From a virus: a stretch of DNA of 26,059 nt. The stretch lies in the UHGV virus genome UHGV-0143644; one strand, given 5' to 3'. Made by a program: the position numbers and the translations under genes. The notes beneath the pieces are model-generated. The model ran no database searches. It was not told where the DNA came from and worked only from the letters and a program-made list of their open reading frames with translations. Below are positions 9,905 to 17,904 of this stretch, piece by piece. Every line of letters starts with the position of its first letter. Positions within the stretch are counted from its first letter, which is position 1.

Positions 9905-10804
9905 TTATTTGATTATTTCTTTTATAAAGACTTCTTTCGGTTGGTATTTTTTATCTGATGATTTGAGCTGGTACGTTATTGTTATATCAGCACGTACAGC
10001 AAATTTACCTGCAAAATCTGATGGGTTTACGTTGGGGCCAAGAACCATATTTACTCTTCGATCTATTAATCCAGGGATAACAGCAGCCCAACCTTTCTCT
10101 GGATTGTCGAGGTCTAATGCACGGATTTCAACATCAACATCAAAATGATCCTGAGTATATGACTCTGGTGTGAAGACAACTTCAGTTGGGGCTTTTTTAA
10201 TGGTTTCAGCGGGAATGGTCACTGTACCACCCCCTGTACCTATGACCATCGTAGATCCTTCGTCTGCCCTAGCTGGGGCAAGCGTCTTAATGGAACTTTT
10301 GGCAAGAGTCTTCTTATTGGTTACCGTGCTTTCTATGATTGCTTGAAGACGGTCAGGTGAAATATTAGCCTCACCGGCACCAATATTGATGATTGTATTG
10401 TTATTTGCTTCAAAGTGGGAGGTGTTGCTTGGAGCCATAGCCTTAGTTGCTAGAACTAAGCCATATCCAACCAGACCAATAACAACAGCACCAACGAGAG
10501 CGTTTCTCATTTTCCCATTTCCGATCTTTGCATGAGCGCCAGCAAGAAACTTGTCCATTTCTTCTTGGCTACCAAAGAGGAGTTTAATAACAATATCTTC
10601 ATAAAGGCTTCCTGCTTCTAATCGCGCAACATGCACCGATATATCAAGGATATTAGCCCCTGTCAGTTCCTGCAAAACACCTTCTGATTGTTTTGCGATG
10701 GCCTCCCACCCTTGAAGGGAGGTAATCACATCTTTGATGCTTACAGGTTCTTTAGTTGAATAATATATGTTTTCGGTAAAGGTTAAAGATAATTCTTGGG
10801 ACAT
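9905..10804 (-). CDS. Unknown single-pass membrane protein (299 aa) in the rexAB position; candidate exclusion / abortive-infection function
   Basis: Clean ORF with GAGGG Shine-Dalgarno 5 nt upstream. One hydrophobic helix (ALVGAVVIGLVGYGLVLATKAMA, about aa 103-125). AT-rich codon usage. Lies between cI and OL/pL and is followed by a terminator. Confidence 0.8.
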   Translation of the reverse strand: MSQELSLTFTENIYYSTKEPVSIKDVITSLQGWEAIAKQSEGVLQELTGANILDISVHVARLEAGSLYEDIVIKLLFGSQEEMDKFLAGAHAKIGNGKMRNALVGAVVIGLVGYGLVLATKAMAPSNTSHFEANNNTIINIGAGEANISPDRLQAIIESTVTNKKTLAKSSIKTLAPARADEGSTMVIGTGGGTVTIPAETIKKAPTEVVFTPESYTQDHFDVDVEIRALDLDNPEKGWAAVIPGLIDRRVNMVLGPNVNPSDFAGKFAVRADITITYQLKSSDKKYQPKEVFIKEIIK

Positions 10805-10933: not shown

Positions 10934-11641
10934 TCATGAACTTTTCAGCCATTCCCTGGCCTCGATGTCATCTAGGTGGCGAGATTGCTTCAGAATACCA
11001 GCTACATACTCCACCTTTGCTACTTGATGATAAGGCAACGTTATTGGCCTGTGGTCTTGGTTGATGCTTGTAAATTGGTATTCTCCGTCTCTGTCATAGC
11101 CAAGAACCTTGATCATGTTGTGCCCTTCAATGGTTCTGACAAACACCTCATCACCTGGGAATACTTTGGTGTTAGGCTCAATGAGTACATATTCTCCTGA
11201 TTTTATTCTGGGCCACATGCTGTCTCCTTTTACACGAAGACCAAAGGCATCTGGATCATCGCTATAAATCTTGAGCCACCCATCGCGCTCTTCGGTCATC
11301 TCGATGGCACCATCAACACCAAGAATTGCCTCACCAACCACGCGCACTAACCCTTTTTTTAATTTGCCAACAATTGAAAAAGTATCTTCATCATTCGCTC
11401 CATTTAACGAAGTGCCGTGCTGAAGCCAAACAACATCAACGTTTAGAAATTTCGCAAGCGCATTCATTTTTTCCTGGCGTGGTAAAGACTCAGCATTAAA
11501 CCATTTGCTAACGCCTTTGGACGAAAGAGAAAGGGCACGGGCTATGGCCATTCCCCTACCATGTTCATCAAGACCAGCTTCTTTACAGGCTTGCGCTAGC
11601 CGCTGGGCGAATTCTTTGCGCACTTTTTCATTCTGAACCAT
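10934..11641 (-). CDS. cI: CI-type prophage repressor, HTH plus LexA-like S24 peptidase domain (235 aa)
   Basis: N-terminal HTH region; C-terminal KGDSMWPRIKSGEYVLIEP...KV Ser-Lys autocleavage domain. The ATG abuts the operator with no Shine-Dalgarno, consistent with a leaderless pRM transcript. Confidence 0.9.
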   Translation of the reverse strand: MVQNEKVRKEFAQRLAQACKEAGLDEHGRGMAIARALSLSSKGVSKWFNAESLPRQEKMNALAKFLNVDVVWLQHGTSLNGANDEDTFSIVGKLKKGLVRVVGEAILGVDGAIEMTEERDGWLKIYSDDPDAFGLRVKGDSMWPRIKSGEYVLIEPNTKVFPGDEVFVRTIEGHNMIKVLGYDRDGEYQFTSINQDHRPITLPYHQVAKVEYVAGILKQSRHLDDIEAREWLKSS

Positions 11642-12385: not shown

Positions 12386-13303
12386 ATGACAAATACAGCA
12401 AAAATACTCAACTTCGGCAGAGGTAACTTTGCCGGACAGGAGCGTAATGTGGCAGATCTCGATGATGGTTACGCCAGACTATCAAATATGCTGCTTGAGG
12501 CTTATTCGGGCGCAGATCTGACCAAGCGACAGTTTAAAGTGCTGCTTGCCATTCTGCGTAAAACCTATGGGTGGAATAAACCAATGGACAGAATCACCGA
12601 TTCTCAACTTAGCGAGATTACAAAGTTACCTGTCAAACGGTGCAATGAAGCCAAGTTAGAACTCGTCAGAATGAATATTATCAAGCAGCAAGGCGGCATG
12701 TTTGGACCAAACAAAAACATCTCAGAATGGTGCATCCCTCAAAACGAGGGAAAATCCCCTAAAACGAGGGATAAAACATCCCTCAAATTGGGGGATTGCT
12801 ATCCCTCAAAACAGGGGGACACAAAAGACACTATTACAAAAGAAAAAAGAAAAGATTATTCGTCAGAGAATTCTGGCGAATCCTCCAACGACCGTCTGGA
12901 AAAGTTTTTTTCAGCTCACCCTGAGGCAGTGATTTACACCCCCAACTTCACCAAGTGGGGAACAACTGCTGACCAGCAATGCGCAGAGTGGATCCTCGCC
13001 CTGCTCGAAAAAGTTAAACCCTTCCCGAAGAAACCCGTCATGGCCGCCTGGGCTAACGACGTACGCCTGATGCGTGAACTGGACGGCCGCAGTCATCGCG
13101 AAATATGCGAGCTATTCCAGTGGGCAAGCAAAGACGCGTTCTGGCACACCAATATCCTCTCGCCTTCAAAGCTCCGCGCTAAGTGGGACACGCTGAGCCT
13201 TCAGAGAGATGCTGGCCGCAGGACGAATACCGCGAGCACCCAGGGCATCGACTTCAACAACACAGACTGGATCAACGAGGTGTTCGATGGAAAGACTATC
13301 TGA
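12386..13303 (+). CDS. O: Replication initiator O, lambda type (305 aa)
   Basis: MTNTAKILNFGRGNFAGQERNVADLDDGYARLSNMLLEAYSGADLTKRQFKVLLAILRKTYGWNKP... matches lambda O; the ori iterons lie inside the gene. Confidence 0.92.
   Translation: MTNTAKILNFGRGNFAGQERNVADLDDGYARLSNMLLEAYSGADLTKRQFKVLLAILRKTYGWNKPMDRITDSQLSEITKLPVKRCNEAKLELVRMNIIKQQGGMFGPNKNISEWCIPQNEGKSPKTRDKTSLKLGDCYPSKQGDTKDTITKEKRKDYSSENSGESSNDRLEKFFSAHPEAVIYTPNFTKWGTTADQQCAEWILALLEKVKPFPKKPVMAAWANDVRLMRELDGRSHREICELFQWASKDAFWHTNILSPSKLRAKWDTLSLQRDAGRRTNTASTQGIDFNNTDWINEVFDGKTI
12734..12819 (+). repeat. Lambda-type replication origin: four O-binding iterons, followed by an AT-rich tract
   Basis: Four ~18-bp inverted-repeat iterons (ATCCCTCAAAACGAGGGA, ATCCCCTAAAACGAGGGA, CATCCCTCAAATTGGGGGA, ATCCCTCAAAACAGGGGGA), then an A-rich stretch at 12820-12860. 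Confidence 0.85.
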
Positions 13304-13976
13304 GCAGCTGGCGAACTGCGACCGTGAAAGCTTTCGCCGCATCGCCCATAACATGCCTGACGCCCCGGCAGAACGCCCTCAGGTTGAGCAGACGGCTGAA
13401 ATCTTCAACTCCCTGTTTAGCGCGCTACGAGCTGCATTTCCGGCAGCAATGGCTGCTTTCCGTGAGCAGAGCGAGTTCAACGAACTGCGCCGTCAGTGGG
13501 TGATGGCATTTCAAGAAAACGGGATTACCACCATGGCACAGGTGGCCGCAGGCATGCGGATTGCCCGCCGCCAGGAGAAGCCATTCCTGCCGTCACCCGG
13601 TCAGTTCGTTGCCTGGTGTAAAGAGGGGCGCTGCCTGCTGGGGTTCAGCGTTGATGACGTGATGACTGAGTACTGGAAATGGCGCCGCCTGGTGTTCCGG
13701 TATCCAACCAGCGAGCAGTATCCGTGGCCTGCGCCAGTTCTGTACCACATTTGCATCGAACTACGCCGCCAAAGCACCGATCGCCAGATGACCGAAAGCG
13801 AGATGTGCCAGGCCGCCAGTAAGGTGCTGGCTGGGTGGGAAGAGCGCGTTGCCGCAGGTAAGCCGGTACCGCCGATCCGCCGTGCTATCGCCGCCCCGGC
13901 CAAGGCCAGCGGTCCTACGCCAGCAGAGATGCTGAAAGCCCAATATGCGCAGCGCAAAGCCGCTGGTCTGATCTAA
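13287..13976 (+). CDS. P: Replication protein P, DnaB helicase loader, lambda type (229 aa)
   Basis: MERLSEQLANCDRESFRRIAHNMPDA...RRQWVMAFQENGITTMAQVAAGMRIARRQEKPFLPSPGQFVAWCKEG matches lambda P; start overlaps the O stop. Confidence 0.9.
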   Translation: MERLSEQLANCDRESFRRIAHNMPDAPAERPQVEQTAEIFNSLFSALRAAFPAAMAAFREQSEFNELRRQWVMAFQENGITTMAQVAAGMRIARRQEKPFLPSPGQFVAWCKEGRCLLGFSVDDVMTEYWKWRRLVFRYPTSEQYPWPAPVLYHICIELRRQSTDRQMTESEMCQAASKVLAGWEERVAAGKPVPPIRRAIAAPAKASGPTPAEMLKAQYAQRKAAGLI

Positions 13977-13987
13977 CAGGAGATCAC

Positions 13988-14677
13988 ATGGAAACCGTAA
14001 TTCAAGCGCTTGAGAAAATTGGCCCGGCAACATACCGCCAGGTGGCCGACCGTCTGGATATCGAACCCGTTGAGGCGCTGAACATGCTGCGCGAACAGCG
14101 CGATCAGGGGCTGTGTGATTTTTCCGACGGCGGCTGGTTCATTGGCAAAGTGACCAGCGCAAAACGCACCGCGCCAGCGGCTAAGCCGGCACTTCACGGC
14201 GTAGCGCCAGACCCCGTTGACCCCGAAGTAATCAGAACGCTGCTTGCGAAGAATGGCGCTATGGATACAGCGTCGTTGGCTCTGGAAGTTAACCGCAACG
14301 GGCGTGGAATGACATCAGCAATGCGCGCGCTCGAGCGCCAGGGTGTCGTGGTGAAGAACGGGGAGGGCAAGGGCGTAACTTGGTCACTGCCGGCGGCGGC
14401 AGCCGAACCTGAGCCAGCTCCTGCCTCACCCGAAGTTCCCGCATTAACCGACGCAGCTAAGCCGCTGGAGCAGTTCGTCAGCGAGATCCCCTCGTTTACC
14501 GAAGGGCGCGTAGCCGGGCAGGTAATCCCAACTGTGCGAGTGCTGTCCCGCGAAATCCGACGCACCAAAAACAAGCTGGCGAGCCTCGAGAAACTGCGCG
14601 ATGCGGTCCGGGTTGTTGGCCGCCATAAGGATCTCGTTAATCAGCTGGTGGGTGCGGAGGTGGACAATGGCCAGTAG
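13988..14677 (+). CDS. Hypothetical phage protein (229 aa), two winged-helix-like segments joined by an Ala/Pro-rich linker
   Basis: AGGAG Shine-Dalgarno; first of four translationally coupled genes downstream of P. Confidence 0.7.
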   Translation: METVIQALEKIGPATYRQVADRLDIEPVEALNMLREQRDQGLCDFSDGGWFIGKVTSAKRTAPAAKPALHGVAPDPVDPEVIRTLLAKNGAMDTASLALEVNRNGRGMTSAMRALERQGVVVKNGEGKGVTWSLPAAAAEPEPAPASPEVPALTDAAKPLEQFVSEIPSFTEGRVAGQVIPTVRVLSREIRRTKNKLASLEKLRDAVRVVGRHKDLVNQLVGAEVDNGQ

Positions 14678-14978
14678 CAACCTCTGGACAATCATTCGCG
14701 CCATCCAGCGCAGCGGGGAGATCACCCCGCGTCAGGTTCGCCGACTGCTGGGCTGCGACAGCAAAAAGGCCTGTCGTCTGCTGGAGCATCTCGTTTCTGC
14801 TGGTGCTTTGAAGAACATCGGCCAGCGCCGCCACCCGGTCTACGTCATGGAGCCGGGCGGGGAGACTCGCATTAAGCCAATGCCTGTGGCGCGCCATGAA
14901 CCCAGTATCGCAGAAGTTTGTCGCCAGAAGTGGCAGGGCTATCAGATCCACAAAATTATCGGGAGCGCGCTAGCATGA
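14667..14978 (+). CDS. Hypothetical protein (103 aa)
   Basis: ATG overlapping the upstream stop (ATGGCCAGTAG); the longer six-frame ORF start is unsupported. Confidence 0.55.
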   Translation: MASSNLWTIIRAIQRSGEITPRQVRRLLGCDSKKACRLLEHLVSAGALKNIGQRRHPVYVMEPGGETRIKPMPVARHEPSIAEVCRQKWQGYQIHKIIGSALA

Positions 14979-15355
14979 GTGATTCACTGAACAATATCGA
15001 CAAACAAGCTTACCAGGTGAGCAGATATGACCTTGTTAGTGGATACATGCAGAAGTGGCCTGATGGTGAGTTCGTTTATCACTCTGACTATCAGGCGCTG
15101 CTGGATGAGAAGGAAGCCGCAGAGAATCGGATCGCTGAGCTGGAGGCGAATAACGATTCGGCCCATAAAGCATTGATAAATGCGAGACACCGGACCGTAA
15201 CTATGCCGACCGGGTATTCGATTAGGCCAGGCCATCCGATTAACGAAACAGAGCGCAGTGTCATGATCCCCAAAGATGGTGGTCAATGGCTTTCTCGTTT
15301 CGATGTTGAGCATGCACTGCGGGTGGCTGGCATCCGCATCAACAGGGATGAATGA
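14975..15355 (+). CDS. Hypothetical protein with coiled-coil segment (126 aa)
   Basis: ATGA start/stop overlap with the upstream gene; predicted coiled coil QALLDEKEAAENRIAELEANN. Confidence 0.55.
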   Translation: MSDSLNNIDKQAYQVSRYDLVSGYMQKWPDGEFVYHSDYQALLDEKEAAENRIAELEANNDSAHKALINARHRTVTMPTGYSIRPGHPINETERSVMIPKDGGQWLSRFDVEHALRVAGIRINRDE

Positions 15356-15356
15356 T

Positions 15357-15614
15357 ATGGACTCATTACTGCAATACGCCTGCCGGAGAGTGGCCGAACT
15401 GGAAAGTTTGCTGCTGGTGGATGTAACCGAAACCGTCTGGCCTGCCGAGATTGGCATGGTCTACGGCCAGGTTGAAAACGCCGGGGATTTACCGGCGCAT
15501 CACCAGCGCCGCCTGAAGCATCACATCAACCGCATGTGGCTGGAGAAAATGCCGGTACCGGCTATCGTCACCGCGGCCCGGTCGCTGGCTGCCGCCATGG
15601 AGGAATACGCGTGA
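15357..15614 (+). CDS. Hypothetical protein (85 aa)
   Basis: Start immediately after the upstream stop; stop overlaps the methyltransferase GTG start. Confidence 0.5.
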   Translation: MDSLLQYACRRVAELESLLLVDVTETVWPAEIGMVYGQVENAGDLPAHHQRRLKHHINRMWLEKMPVPAIVTAARSLAAAMEEYA

Positions 15615-17599
15615 GAGAAATCATCGTTGATAACTTTGCCGGTGGCGGCGGGGCGAGTACGGGTATCGAGCTGGCAATCGGGCGCAGCGTGGACATTGCC
15701 ATCAACCACGACGAGAACGCCGTGGCGATGCACACCACCAACCACCCGGATACGCTGCACTACTGCGAATCTGTTTTTGATGTAAATCCCTTGGTGGCGA
15801 CTGCTGGCCGCCCGGTGGGGCTGGCGTGGTTCTCCCCGGACTGCCGTCACTTCTCGAAGGCCAAAGGTTCTAAGCCGGTAGAGAAGGAAATTCGCGGTCT
15901 GGCGTGGATCGTCATTCGATGGGCGCTGGCAGTACGCCCGCGCGTGATGATGCTGGAGAACGTCGAGGAGTTCAAAACGTGGGGGCCGCTTATCGTATCG
16001 GCTGATGGTGGGCAGCGCCCGGACCCGGCCCGCGCCGGAGAAACCTTTGATGCGTTCTGCGGCATGCTGTCCGACGGTATCCCCGCCGGGCATCCCGCGC
16101 TGGTGGAATGCTGCGAGTTCCTGGGCATTGCCGCCGACGGTGAACAGGCGCAGCAGCTGGTTGCCGGACTGGGCTATGTCGTCGATTACCGCGAGCTGCG
16201 CGCGTGCGACTTTGGCGCGCCGACCATCCGGAAGAGATTCTTCATGGTGATGCGCTGCGACGGTGTGCCAGTGACATGGCCGGAGCCGACCCATGGCGAT
16301 CCGAAAACACCAGCAGTGCAGGCTGGCAAGTTGGCGCCATGGCACACCGCGGCGGAATGTATTGACTGGTCTATCCCGGCGCAGTCCATCTTCGACCGCA
16401 AAAAGCCGCTGGCGGAGAACACGCTTAAGCGCATCGCCCGCGGCATCCAGCGTTTCGTGATTGATAGCGCTTCGCCGTTTATCGTGAAGTGCAACCACAC
16501 CACGACAAAGGGGAAATACGACTGTTTCCGCGGGCAGGGGCTGACTGAACCATTGCAGACCATCACCAAAACGCATGGCTATGCGATTACGGTACCGCAC
16601 CTGACGAAGTTCCGCACCGGAGCGACCGGGCAGCCAGTGACCGAACCGGTGCCAACAGTCACCGCCGGCACATCAGTACGTCCTGGCGGAAATGGGCACG
16701 CTTTGGGCGTCGTTGAGGCGGAGCTGGCACCATTCCTGGCGGGTAGTGGCGGCAGTGAGTATCAAGCGAAGCCACGCCCAATGGATAAACCCATGCACAC
16801 CATTCTGAAAGAGTCCCGCGCATGTGTTGTCGCGCCGGTGATCGCCCGGCAATTCGGTGCCAGCATCGGGCATCGGGCCGACGAACCGAGCGCCACGATC
16901 ACCGCCGGCGGGGGCGGCAAATCACAGCTGGTGTCCACGACACTGATTCAGATGGGTTACGGCGAACGCCCGGGGCAGGAGCCGCGCGTGCCAGGCCTGC
17001 ATAAGCCGCTAGGCACGGTCGTGGCTGGCGGTGGTAAGTTTGGGCTGGTGGCCGCGAATTTGGTTAAGCATTTCGGTGGTAACTACCAGGGCGCTGGCTT
17101 GGGGCTGGATGAACCAGCACACACGGTCACCACCGCGGATCATCATGGACTGGTCACATCGCACCTGGTGATGCTTCGCGGCACCTGCCGGGATGGTCGG
17201 GTGGTAGACGCGCCAGCGCCGGGGTTAACTGCGGGCGGCCTGCATGTCGGTAACGTTGAGACTAGGCTGGCGACAGAGGGCTATGACGAGCAGCGCGCAG
17301 CCCAGGCGCTGGCGTTCCTGCGGGAGTATTGCGGGACGGATTCTGACGGGCTTGTGACGGTTGATGGCGTGGTGTACCGCATCGTTGACGTTGGCATGAG
17401 AATGCTTCAGCCAGCAGAACTGTACCGCGCCCAGGGCTTCCCGAAGTGGTACATCATTGACCAGGACTACCGCGGGGTGAAGTACGCGAAAGATAAGCAG
17501 GTGGCCCGCTGCGGCAACGCTGTGCCGCCGCCCTTCGCTGAAGCTCTTGTGCGGGCAAACCTGCCGGAGATGTGCCAGCAGCAGGGGCAGGCGGCGTAA
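15611..17599 (+). CDS. DNA (cytosine-5)-methyltransferase with a very long variable region (662 aa)
   Basis: Motif I DNFAGGGGAS, catalytic motif IV SPDCRHFSKAKG, motif VI MLENVEEF, motif VIII RKRFFMV, motif X GNAVPPPF. GTG start with GGAGGA Shine-Dalgarno. About 400 aa lie between motifs VIII and X. No restriction endonuclease partner recognised nearby. Confidence 0.9.
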   Translation: MREIIVDNFAGGGGASTGIELAIGRSVDIAINHDENAVAMHTTNHPDTLHYCESVFDVNPLVATAGRPVGLAWFSPDCRHFSKAKGSKPVEKEIRGLAWIVIRWALAVRPRVMMLENVEEFKTWGPLIVSADGGQRPDPARAGETFDAFCGMLSDGIPAGHPALVECCEFLGIAADGEQAQQLVAGLGYVVDYRELRACDFGAPTIRKRFFMVMRCDGVPVTWPEPTHGDPKTPAVQAGKLAPWHTAAECIDWSIPAQSIFDRKKPLAENTLKRIARGIQRFVIDSASPFIVKCNHTTTKGKYDCFRGQGLTEPLQTITKTHGYAITVPHLTKFRTGATGQPVTEPVPTVTAGTSVRPGGNGHALGVVEAELAPFLAGSGGSEYQAKPRPMDKPMHTILKESRACVVAPVIARQFGASIGHRADEPSATITAGGGGKSQLVSTTLIQMGYGERPGQEPRVPGLHKPLGTVVAGGGKFGLVAANLVKHFGGNYQGAGLGLDEPAHTVTTADHHGLVTSHLVMLRGTCRDGRVVDAPAPGLTAGGLHVGNVETRLATEGYDEQRAAQALAFLREYCGTDSDGLVTVDGVVYRIVDVGMRMLQPAELYRAQGFPKWYIIDQDYRGVKYAKDKQVARCGNAVPPPFAEALVRANLPEMCQQQGQAA

Positions 17600-17838
17600 T
17601 GTACGACAAATACACCCTCAACCGCTGCGACGCAATGGAGTGGCTGGCCGAGCATTACCCAGACTTTCCAGACAAGATGCCAGATGTGCCCCTAAAGGCT
17701 GACTGGTGTAGTGCCAGTTTGTTTATGGGATGGCGCTTCGTGATTTTGCTCGATGGTACCCTGGTGTTTGCTGACTGCTTATCGCCTCCCATCCGCGCGG
17801 AAGATATGGCTGGCTTCAAATTACCTGACTTGGTCTGA
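17599..17838 (+). CDS. Hypothetical protein (79 aa), translationally coupled to the methyltransferase
   Basis: ATG overlaps the methyltransferase TAA (TAATG); followed by a strong terminator. Confidence 0.55.
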   Translation: MYDKYTLNRCDAMEWLAEHYPDFPDKMPDVPLKADWCSASLFMGWRFVILLDGTLVFADCLSPPIRAEDMAGFKLPDLV

Positions 17839-17880
17839 CTGCCATACAAGCGATATGAGAATCCCCATATCGACAGCCAG

Positions 17881-17904
17881 GGCCTCTTCGGAGGCCTTTT
17901 TCTC
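17881..17904 (+). terminator. Intrinsic terminator
   Basis: GGCCTC-TTCG-GAGGCC hairpin followed by TTTTTCT. Confidence 0.8.

Follow-up and report, generated by a model that had tools for sequence, protein, structure and literature searches.

What does a phage cytosine methylase do with about 400 amino acids (aa) placed between two of its catalytic motifs, and is it the half of a restriction system or an enzyme in its own right? This question is raised by the virus genome UHGV-0143644, of which one stretch of 26,059 nucleotides (nt), referred to here as the window, was analysed. An earlier note on this DNA had proposed that the gene in question encodes an orphan C5 cytosine methyltransferase for phage self-protection, whose unusually long variable region made it either a multispecific enzyme or a fusion with an extra domain. 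Our analysis indicates that the long region reads as a row of seven diverged modules of the target-recognition domain (TRD) type and holds no foreign domain. We consider it probable that the methylase is an orphan phage 5-methylcytosine (m5C) enzyme that is multispecific by virtue of these seven modules, which would be used as alternatives. It is a new member of a large, partly characterised family, and the gene itself is ordinary.

The catalytic core is that of a C5 methyltransferase with intact catalytic residues. The protein scores 71.5 bits with Pfam PF00145, whose cutoff is 22 (E = 1.1e-19), and the TIGR00675 superfamily model scores 50.6 bits, under its cutoff of 100.65. A profile of the family finds C5 methyltransferases in the PDB (3g7u, 2e-21; M.HhaI, 1e-11), and Foldseek against the PDB returned the general C5 fold and nothing more specific. 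Motifs were aligned to solved C5 enzymes, and their residues are numbered in the 662-aa protein (Table 1). The motifs are present, which together with the PF00145 match and the fact that no endonuclease was recognised in the window upholds the identification as an orphan phage C5 methyltransferase. Motif VIII is followed by motif IX after about 390 aa and by motif X after about 426 aa, in agreement with the 400 or so residues previously estimated. In motif IV, S-P-D-C aligns onto G-P-P-C of PDB 3g7u with D on the second P; the residue before Cys78 is Asp, where C5 methyltransferases have Pro. The gene call was confirmed and its start corrected: every database homolog is given the start at 15611 (MREIIVDNF..., 662 aa) and not that of the longest open reading frame (ORF) at 15536. 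This GTG overlaps the upstream stop codon as GTGA and has GGAGGA 6 nt upstream. An identical protein is found on 40 public contigs, and wherever a homolog of 95-96% identity is labelled with its source, that source is Enterobacter (cloacae complex, roggenkampii, hormaechei). Apart from the motifs, the core contains an extra helical insert between motifs VI and VIII (aa 124-188, IPAGHPALVECCEFLGIAADGEQAQQLVAG), which is confidently modelled and does not occur in the family consensus; a close homolog, P0058, has a further 18-aa insertion within it.

The long region and the P-D-C tripeptide had both been taken for oddities of this gene, and here the earlier note was mistaken, for both are typical of the family. 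The family was defined by a HMMER scan of 1.84 billion representative proteins, which gave 8,288 clusters at E <= 1e-3 and 2,492 at E <= 1e-30; the best 150 clusters have protein lengths of 472-1,113 aa. With few substitutions, SPDC[KTR]H[FH]SKA is found in nearly all of these best 150 representatives, and an alignment of 112 sequences has P76, C78, E116-N117-V118, R207, R209 and G635-N636 invariant, with S75 and D77 each at least 90% conserved. Because the tripeptide is near-universal in the 150 representatives and D77 is at least 90% conserved in the 112 relatives, P-D-C reads as a family signature rather than as a lesion in this gene. Cultured phages with family members infect Klebsiella, Escherichia, Citrobacter, Pectobacterium, Aeromonas, Vibrio, Pseudomonas (including F116), Burkholderia, Ralstonia, Rhizobium, Rhodobacter and Paracoccus, and more remote matches occur in Gordonia and Mycobacterium phages. 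Within prophages the homologs occupy early or replication regions, frequently with an adenine methylase before them; no endonuclease was recognised in the related loci inspected, and the genes nearby are phage early genes, adenine methylases, Ant, Q and RusA. For phage F116 and the E. coli ST131 methylome, the literature search found nothing on this family. The longest members, of about 900-1,100 aa, are interrupted by an intein: in P0152 and P0201 it sits exactly at the catalytic Cys of motif IV (WFSPD, then C...intein...HN, then CKHFS). Pfam identifies its Hint and LAGLIDADG domains in these two, and P0229, P0236, P0250 and P0258 were recognised as carrying an intein by sequence pattern.

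The variable region of the window methylase has a regular build. Anchors of the form P-x-x-[T/G]-[IVL]-[T/L/K/V] stand at aa 314, 346, 394, 426, 466, 502 and 535, spaced by 32-48 aa. This regular-expression count of seven compares with 0.56 expected, and seven was never reached when the region was shuffled 20,000 times; the remainder of the methylase protein contains no copy. A hidden Markov model (HMM) of the module likewise counts seven, and the consensus of 789 family units is G-G-x-R-G-x-x-[LV]-D-E-P-L-x-T-[VI]-T-A-G-G-x-H-x-L-V-x-A-x-L-x-K-Y-G-G. At the DNA level the array shows no tandem or direct repeats, and the modules are therefore old and diverged. Their core, P-x-x-T-[IV]-T, resembles the conserved TL element of the TRD of C5 methyltransferases. 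A monospecific C5 enzyme has a single KPSPTITT element before motif IX (PMC11954522), and when the module HMM is run against the multispecific enzymes of the Bacillus phages SPR, rho11s and H2, it lands on their SPT[IL]TT and EPAFTVNT elements. A foreign domain in the region of about 400 aa was considered and rejected, as Pfam, NCBIfam and PHROGs return methylase families only. Of the two explanations offered in the earlier note, the fused domain therefore falls away, and multispecificity finds a plausible basis in the seven TRD-type modules.

These modules behave as cassettes. Among twelve homologs of 86-95% identity, the large insertions and deletions in the variable region correspond to whole modules: module 2 (41 aa) is absent in three of them, module 3 (35 aa) is absent in two, and three have an extra 32-aa module beside module 6. 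The 120 closest homologs fall into length classes of 621-628, 653-680 and 691-694 aa, which correspond to six, seven and eight modules by the module HMM. The same model counts 1-12 modules in the 150 representatives, with a mode of 8, and the count rises with protein length (r = 0.76) by about 31 aa per module. We compared 1,060 modules from 151 proteins and found that the best match of a module has a median identity of 28% within its own protein and 58% in other proteins. At least 48 module types recur; two modules of one type occur together in only 8 of the 151 proteins, and 34 of 130 co-occurring type pairs are found in both orders. The last module is fixed in position and the type of the penultimate one nearly so. 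Matched module types are 58-78% conserved, compared with 55-77% for the catalytic core. To judge from the literature searched, this modular, cassette-like build of the variable region appears to be undescribed.

The end of the array has been altered in this lineage. In the Enterobacter/Atlantibacter enzymes a helix (YDEQRAAQALAFLREYCG) stands in place of the P-x-H-T...KDRF half of the family's fixed last module, and the GLVTV-x-G-x-x-Y-R-IVD strands before motif IX are kept. AlphaFold2 (AF2) gives a predicted local distance difference test score (pLDDT) above 85 from aa 557 onwards, with the helix at 560-574. The enzyme of Citrobacter phage phiNP, which is 65% identical, still has the canonical terminal module. 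As the terminal T-[IV]-T half is missing, another module must supply that contact if the window enzyme is active.

Taken together, we propose the following mechanism. In this scheme a single catalytic core (motifs I-VIII and IX-X) would be joined to seven diverged recognition modules in tandem, each contributing a loop, a T-[IV]-T core and a Gly-rich loop of its own. Because the single core would use the seven modules alternatively, several short targets would be methylated, and the specificity would be the union of these targets, as in the SPR, rho11s and H2 enzymes. Each module would recognise its target independently of the others. The gene would be silent in the lysogen and expressed from the early-right transcript during lytic growth, and the enzyme would then act on replicating phage DNA, so that the progeny may resist many m5C-sensitive restriction enzymes. 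The proposed role in self-protection gains support by analogy, since relatives partly protect DNA from many restriction enzymes (PMC3925955). Several observations weigh against this multispecific reading. The shortest members inspected (472-478 aa) carry about 3-4 modules by manual reading, and for this reason some modules may be structural; by the module HMM the lowest count is one, for a 495-aa member. The relatives with reported activity or specificity are only 41-47% identical to the window methylase, and the scores of the module HMM on the Bacillus-phage TRDs are weak (9-10 bits), so we treat them as a lead. In the AF2 model of the 662-aa protein, built with 112 relatives, the core exceeds a pLDDT of 90 and the array (aa 300-557) is mostly below 50, which leaves independent docking of the modules without structural support; modules 3-4 of a 478-aa relative with four modules are also below 50. 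The two AF2 models are uninformative on whether the array consists of separate modules or a single domain.

The most serious competitor, which we nevertheless regard as rather unlikely, is that the repeats jointly form one extended DNA-binding domain of degenerate specificity (CC, or C in nearly any context), with the number of modules tuning affinity or processivity instead of the set of targets; the anti-restriction role would be unchanged. It would account for the relaxed specificity, partial protection and CC context that the authors working on the relatives describe, for the 3-4 modules kept by the shortest members inspected (counted by hand), for the fixed position of the last two types and for the fact that the AF2 models show no separate domains. 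A generic scaffold repeat, however, is not expected to hold dozens of distinct, separately conserved types. Modules within one protein are only about 28% identical, while each type remains 58-78% conserved between proteins with 50% divergence; a protein hardly ever retains two modules of one type, 34 of 130 type pairs are found in either order, and near-identical proteins gain or lose whole modules and are otherwise unchanged. Multispecificity through alternative modules fits these patterns better. Another idea is that the methylase is an orphan of a single specificity that serves regulation or replication, as Dam and CcrM do, and in which one module reads DNA and the rest are inert relics. 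The gene does adjoin replication genes, and a Sinorhizobium study speculated on a replication role for such methylases, but every module type is conserved comparably to the catalytic core, the canonical terminal module is the very one that is degraded in this lineage, and relatives protect many unrelated sites (PMC3925955), all of which makes this idea very improbable.

Asp in place of Pro in the Pro-Cys dipeptide could also be taken to mark another chemistry, such as CmoX-like carboxymethyl transfer or another C5 adduct, or an inactive DNA-binding protein. The CmoX structure 8yf3 is among the fold and sequence matches, and enterobacterial hosts produce carboxy-S-adenosylmethionine (Cx-SAM) via CmoA (PMC12783734). 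Yet CmoX is defined by SPPC and by Arg in place of the motif X Asn, which is Asn304 of M.HhaI (PMC12783734), whereas the window methylase has SPDC and keeps the family-invariant Asn in GNAV. No CmoA or CmoY gene was found in the window, and relatives close to SPDC members block m5C-sensitive enzymes when expressed in E. coli. A CmoX-type carboxymethyltransferase was accordingly rejected on the published criteria, and a different chemistry or an inactive protein is in our opinion hardly credible. Even fainter is the chance that the methylase is half of an ordinary restriction-modification pair: no endonuclease was recognised in the 26-kb window or in the examined loci, and no point in favour of such a pair was found.

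The earlier note had also linked the methylase through overlapping starts and stops to five small genes of a block that closes with a terminator. The overlaps and the terminator are real: the gene at 14667 overlaps its predecessor by 11 nt, the gene at 14975 does so as ATGA and the gene at 17599 as TAATG, and the terminator hairpin is present in the minimum-free-energy fold and is not listed by a consensus scanner. In lambdoid nin regions it is common for neighbouring genes to overlap slightly. We counted the co-occurrence of the neighbours with the methylase in 80 related viral loci (IMG/VR). The DUF1627 gene accompanies it in 1 locus, the Ren-like gene in 11 (adjacent to the methylase in none) and the Ead-like gene in 3, and the downstream phrog_34180 gene in none of the 80. 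In other prophages the methylase stands behind MT-A70 and DndB genes, between a Dam-type methylase and Ant, or before O and P. These counts led us to reject a functional set of the methylase and the five small genes, four of which are neighbours, not partners.

The remaining one, the ORF immediately upstream, is the only constant neighbour, although its conserved element also occurs without the methylase. This YfdM-like element forms the last approximately 55 aa of the ORF (VWPAEI...HINRMWLEKMP...AARSLAAAME) and immediately precedes the methylase start in 52-54 of the 80 loci (L006-L056, L086, L087), among them nearly all those with a methylase of at least 61% identity and upstream DNA available. 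It is likewise found upstream in all seven cultured phages with a methylase of at least 65% identity. Its forms were classed by ORF length and sequence motifs, with a Pfam check on representatives. The element is free-standing in 22 loci, and elsewhere it is the C-terminal tail of another protein, namely of three unrelated kinds of adenine or class-I methylase, Dam-type (17), FDPPH-motif (5) and MT-A70 (3), and of fusions of 3'-phosphoadenosine-5'-phosphosulfate (PAPS) reductase and Dam (2) and unclassified proteins (3). In Salmonella phage ST64B this tail closes the PAPS-reductase gene sb44, and the gene that follows is RusA, not a methylase. The association thus runs one way, and the case for a dedicated partner is weakened by this occurrence without a methylase; the element may serve as a partner or as a translational coupling signal, or it may mark a preferred recombination joint.

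The window as a whole reads as a lambdoid prophage of the Enterobacter type (Table 1). The methylase gene lies after O and P and before ninB in the early-right region, and the G+C content of approximately 13000-17800 is 56-63%, compared with 36-47% in most of the left arm. No endonuclease was recognised among the genes anywhere in the 26-kb window, and the other recognisable genes are those of a lambdoid phage. Three further regions of the window deserve mention. Just beyond the integrase end of the prophage, where local G+C is 36-41%, a gene on the minus strand (66-1964) encodes 632 aa that combine ankyrin repeats with an N-terminal ShET2 enterotoxin domain (PF07906, E = 1e-44). The spacer between the terminator and ninB (17905-18720) has about 48% G+C, compared with about 60% on either side; it contains small ORFs at 18212-18412 and 18423-18638 (the latter phrog_4847) and a promoter-like site at 18635-18664, and looks like a moron-type insertion. 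A 299-aa ORF on the minus strand (9905-10804) adjoins the cI-type repressor gene and matches phrog_4506 over its full length (E = 2e-170), with no Pfam match; because of its position beside the repressor gene, it is a candidate exclusion or defence gene.

Table 1. Features of the methylase, its surroundings and the prophage, in window coordinates or in residues of the 662-aa protein.
Feature	Position	Strand	Basis or remark
Integrase	2639-3847		
Exonuclease and RecT	5404-6866	-	
Gam-like, N-like, SieB and CII-like genes			also identified in window
cI-type repressor	10934-11641	-	
O	12386-13303		
P	13209-13976		
DUF1627 / phrog_630 protein, 229 aa	13988-14677	+	Pfam PF07789, E = 6e-9; phrog_630
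Ren-like exclusion protein homolog, 103 aa	14667-14978 (ATG)	+	phrog_142, E = 3e-16
Ead/Ea22-like protein, 126 aa	14975-15355 (ATG)	+	PF13935, E = 4e-4, below cutoff; PHROG matches
Small ORF with YfdM-like element, 88 aa (or 85 aa, ATG 15357)	15348-15614	+	phrog_16025, E = 4e-50
C5 cytosine DNA methyltransferase, 662 aa, GTG start	15611-17599	+	Pfam PF00145; PDB profile matches
Motif I, FAGGGG	aa 9-14		
Motif IV, S-P-D-C, catalytic Cys78	15833-15844 (aa 75-78)	+	
Motif VI, ENV	aa 116-118		
Motif VIII, TIRKR	aa 205-209		
Seven TRD-like modules	16523-17260 (aa 305-550)	+	regular expression; module HMM
Lineage-specific helix	17279-17386 (helix: aa 557-578, 17279-17344)	+	family consensus; comparison with phiNP met
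Motifs IX and X (IX: MRMLQPAELYRAQGFP; RMLQPAELYRAQGFP; X: GNAV)	17387-17524 (IX from aa 596; X aa 635-638)	+	
Small ORF, 79 aa, phrog_34180	17599-17838 (ATG)	+	E = 3e-42
Intrinsic terminator, GGCCTC-TTCG-GAGGCC then TTTTT	17880-17903	+	read from sequence
NinB	18724-19323		
Q	20258-21073		
NinG, holin, endolysin and small terminase subunit genes			identified in window

The orphan methylases carried by a phage or prophage determine the hosts open to it, which makes them relevant to phage therapy and to horizontal gene flow among Enterobacter and related bacteria; m5C specificities are at the same time badly under-mapped. If the array consists of interchangeable recognition modules, the 'relaxed' protection conferred by the Paracoccus and Aeromonas enzymes would receive a simple structural explanation, and the family would offer a natural collection of small C5 recognition modules with which methylation specificities could be read or designed. 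We can imagine a broader version, which we advance tentatively and would not call probable: the 'relaxed specificity' of the whole family may be combinatorial multispecificity, drawn from at least 48 cassette types of about 35 aa in arrays of up to 12 on one catalytic core, far more than the three or four TRDs in the enzymes of Bacillus phages, with the enterobacterial enzyme working together with the YfdM-like element. If this is true, target sets could be read from the module list and engineered through it.

Among known systems, the prophage-borne methylases M.EcoGII, Hia5 and Hin1523 resemble the window methylase in being orphans, with very broad protection, and M.EcoGII has been reported to be silent in the lysogen; they differ in being non-specific adenine N6 methylases of an unrelated fold class without a repeat array. 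M.HhaI and M.HaeIII share the catalytic motifs and the fold, and their one TRD, in which a conserved T-L dipeptide separates recognition loops 1 and 2 (PMC2790894), resembles one module of the array. These two enzymes have a single TRD of about 80 aa in a total of 324-327 aa, and a P-C dipeptide.

The nearest likeness in sequence is to a group of enzymes from Paracoccus, Aeromonas and Rhizobium, with full-length homology at 38-47% identity (E 1e-129 to 1e-162), SPDC[KTR]H[FH]SKA, lengths of 565-710 aa, 5-8 modules and a prophage early or replication location without an endonuclease. Pyei1_p05 of a Paracoccus phage is 41% identical over aa 4-657 (E = 2e-162) and has SPDCKHFSKA and eight modules; ARM81mr_p29 of Aeromonas phage phiARM81mr is 47% identical (E = 5e-153) and has SPDC and five modules; the enzyme of Rhizobium phage RR1-A is 38% identical. 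The phiNP met protein also has SPDC, with six modules. Pyei1_p05 is in turn about 69% identical to JCM7686_0772 and JCM7686_2655 of Paracoccus aminophilus (PMC6536676), 2.1-kb genes that were expressed in E. coli (PMC3925955) and gave partial protection from AluI, BglI, Bme1390I, BsuRI, CaiI, EcoO109I, EcoRII, Hin6I, HpaII and HpyF10VI (PMC3925955 Additional file 8). Phage m5C proteins of about 700 aa have also been described as widespread, and ARM81mr_p29 as being of relaxed specificity (PMC5537653). The papers cited here on these Paracoccus and Aeromonas relatives mention neither 'multispecific' nor a repeat architecture. The window methylase differs from them in belonging to an enterobacterial lambdoid prophage and in having its own seven module types, the helix in the terminal module and the helical insert between motifs VI and VIII.

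The nearest likeness in design is to the M.SPRI-type enzymes of the Bacillus phages SPR, phi3T, rho11s and H2, in which each TRD functions independently. They are orphan C5 enzymes with one core and with TRD elements between motifs VIII and IX, each element having a T-[LIV]-[TS] core and then a Gly-rich loop, and in both groups about 90 non-repeated aa follow motif VIII before the modules and motif IX. The SPR, rho11s and H2 sequences have 3-4 SPT[IL]TT, SHTLSA or EPAFTVNT elements at the same position. A 2025 review exemplifies arrayed TRDs by Bacillus temperate phages only. Motif IV reads S-P-C-Q-S-F-S in these enzymes and S-P-D-C-R-H-F-S in the window methylase; they have 3-4 modules in 439-503 aa, compared with 7 here and up to 12 in the family, and the sequence relatedness beyond the C5 core consists only of the 9-10-bit module matches. 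Judged by its sequence, the window methylase probably works like the enzymes of the Bacillus-phage group and belongs to a different lineage.

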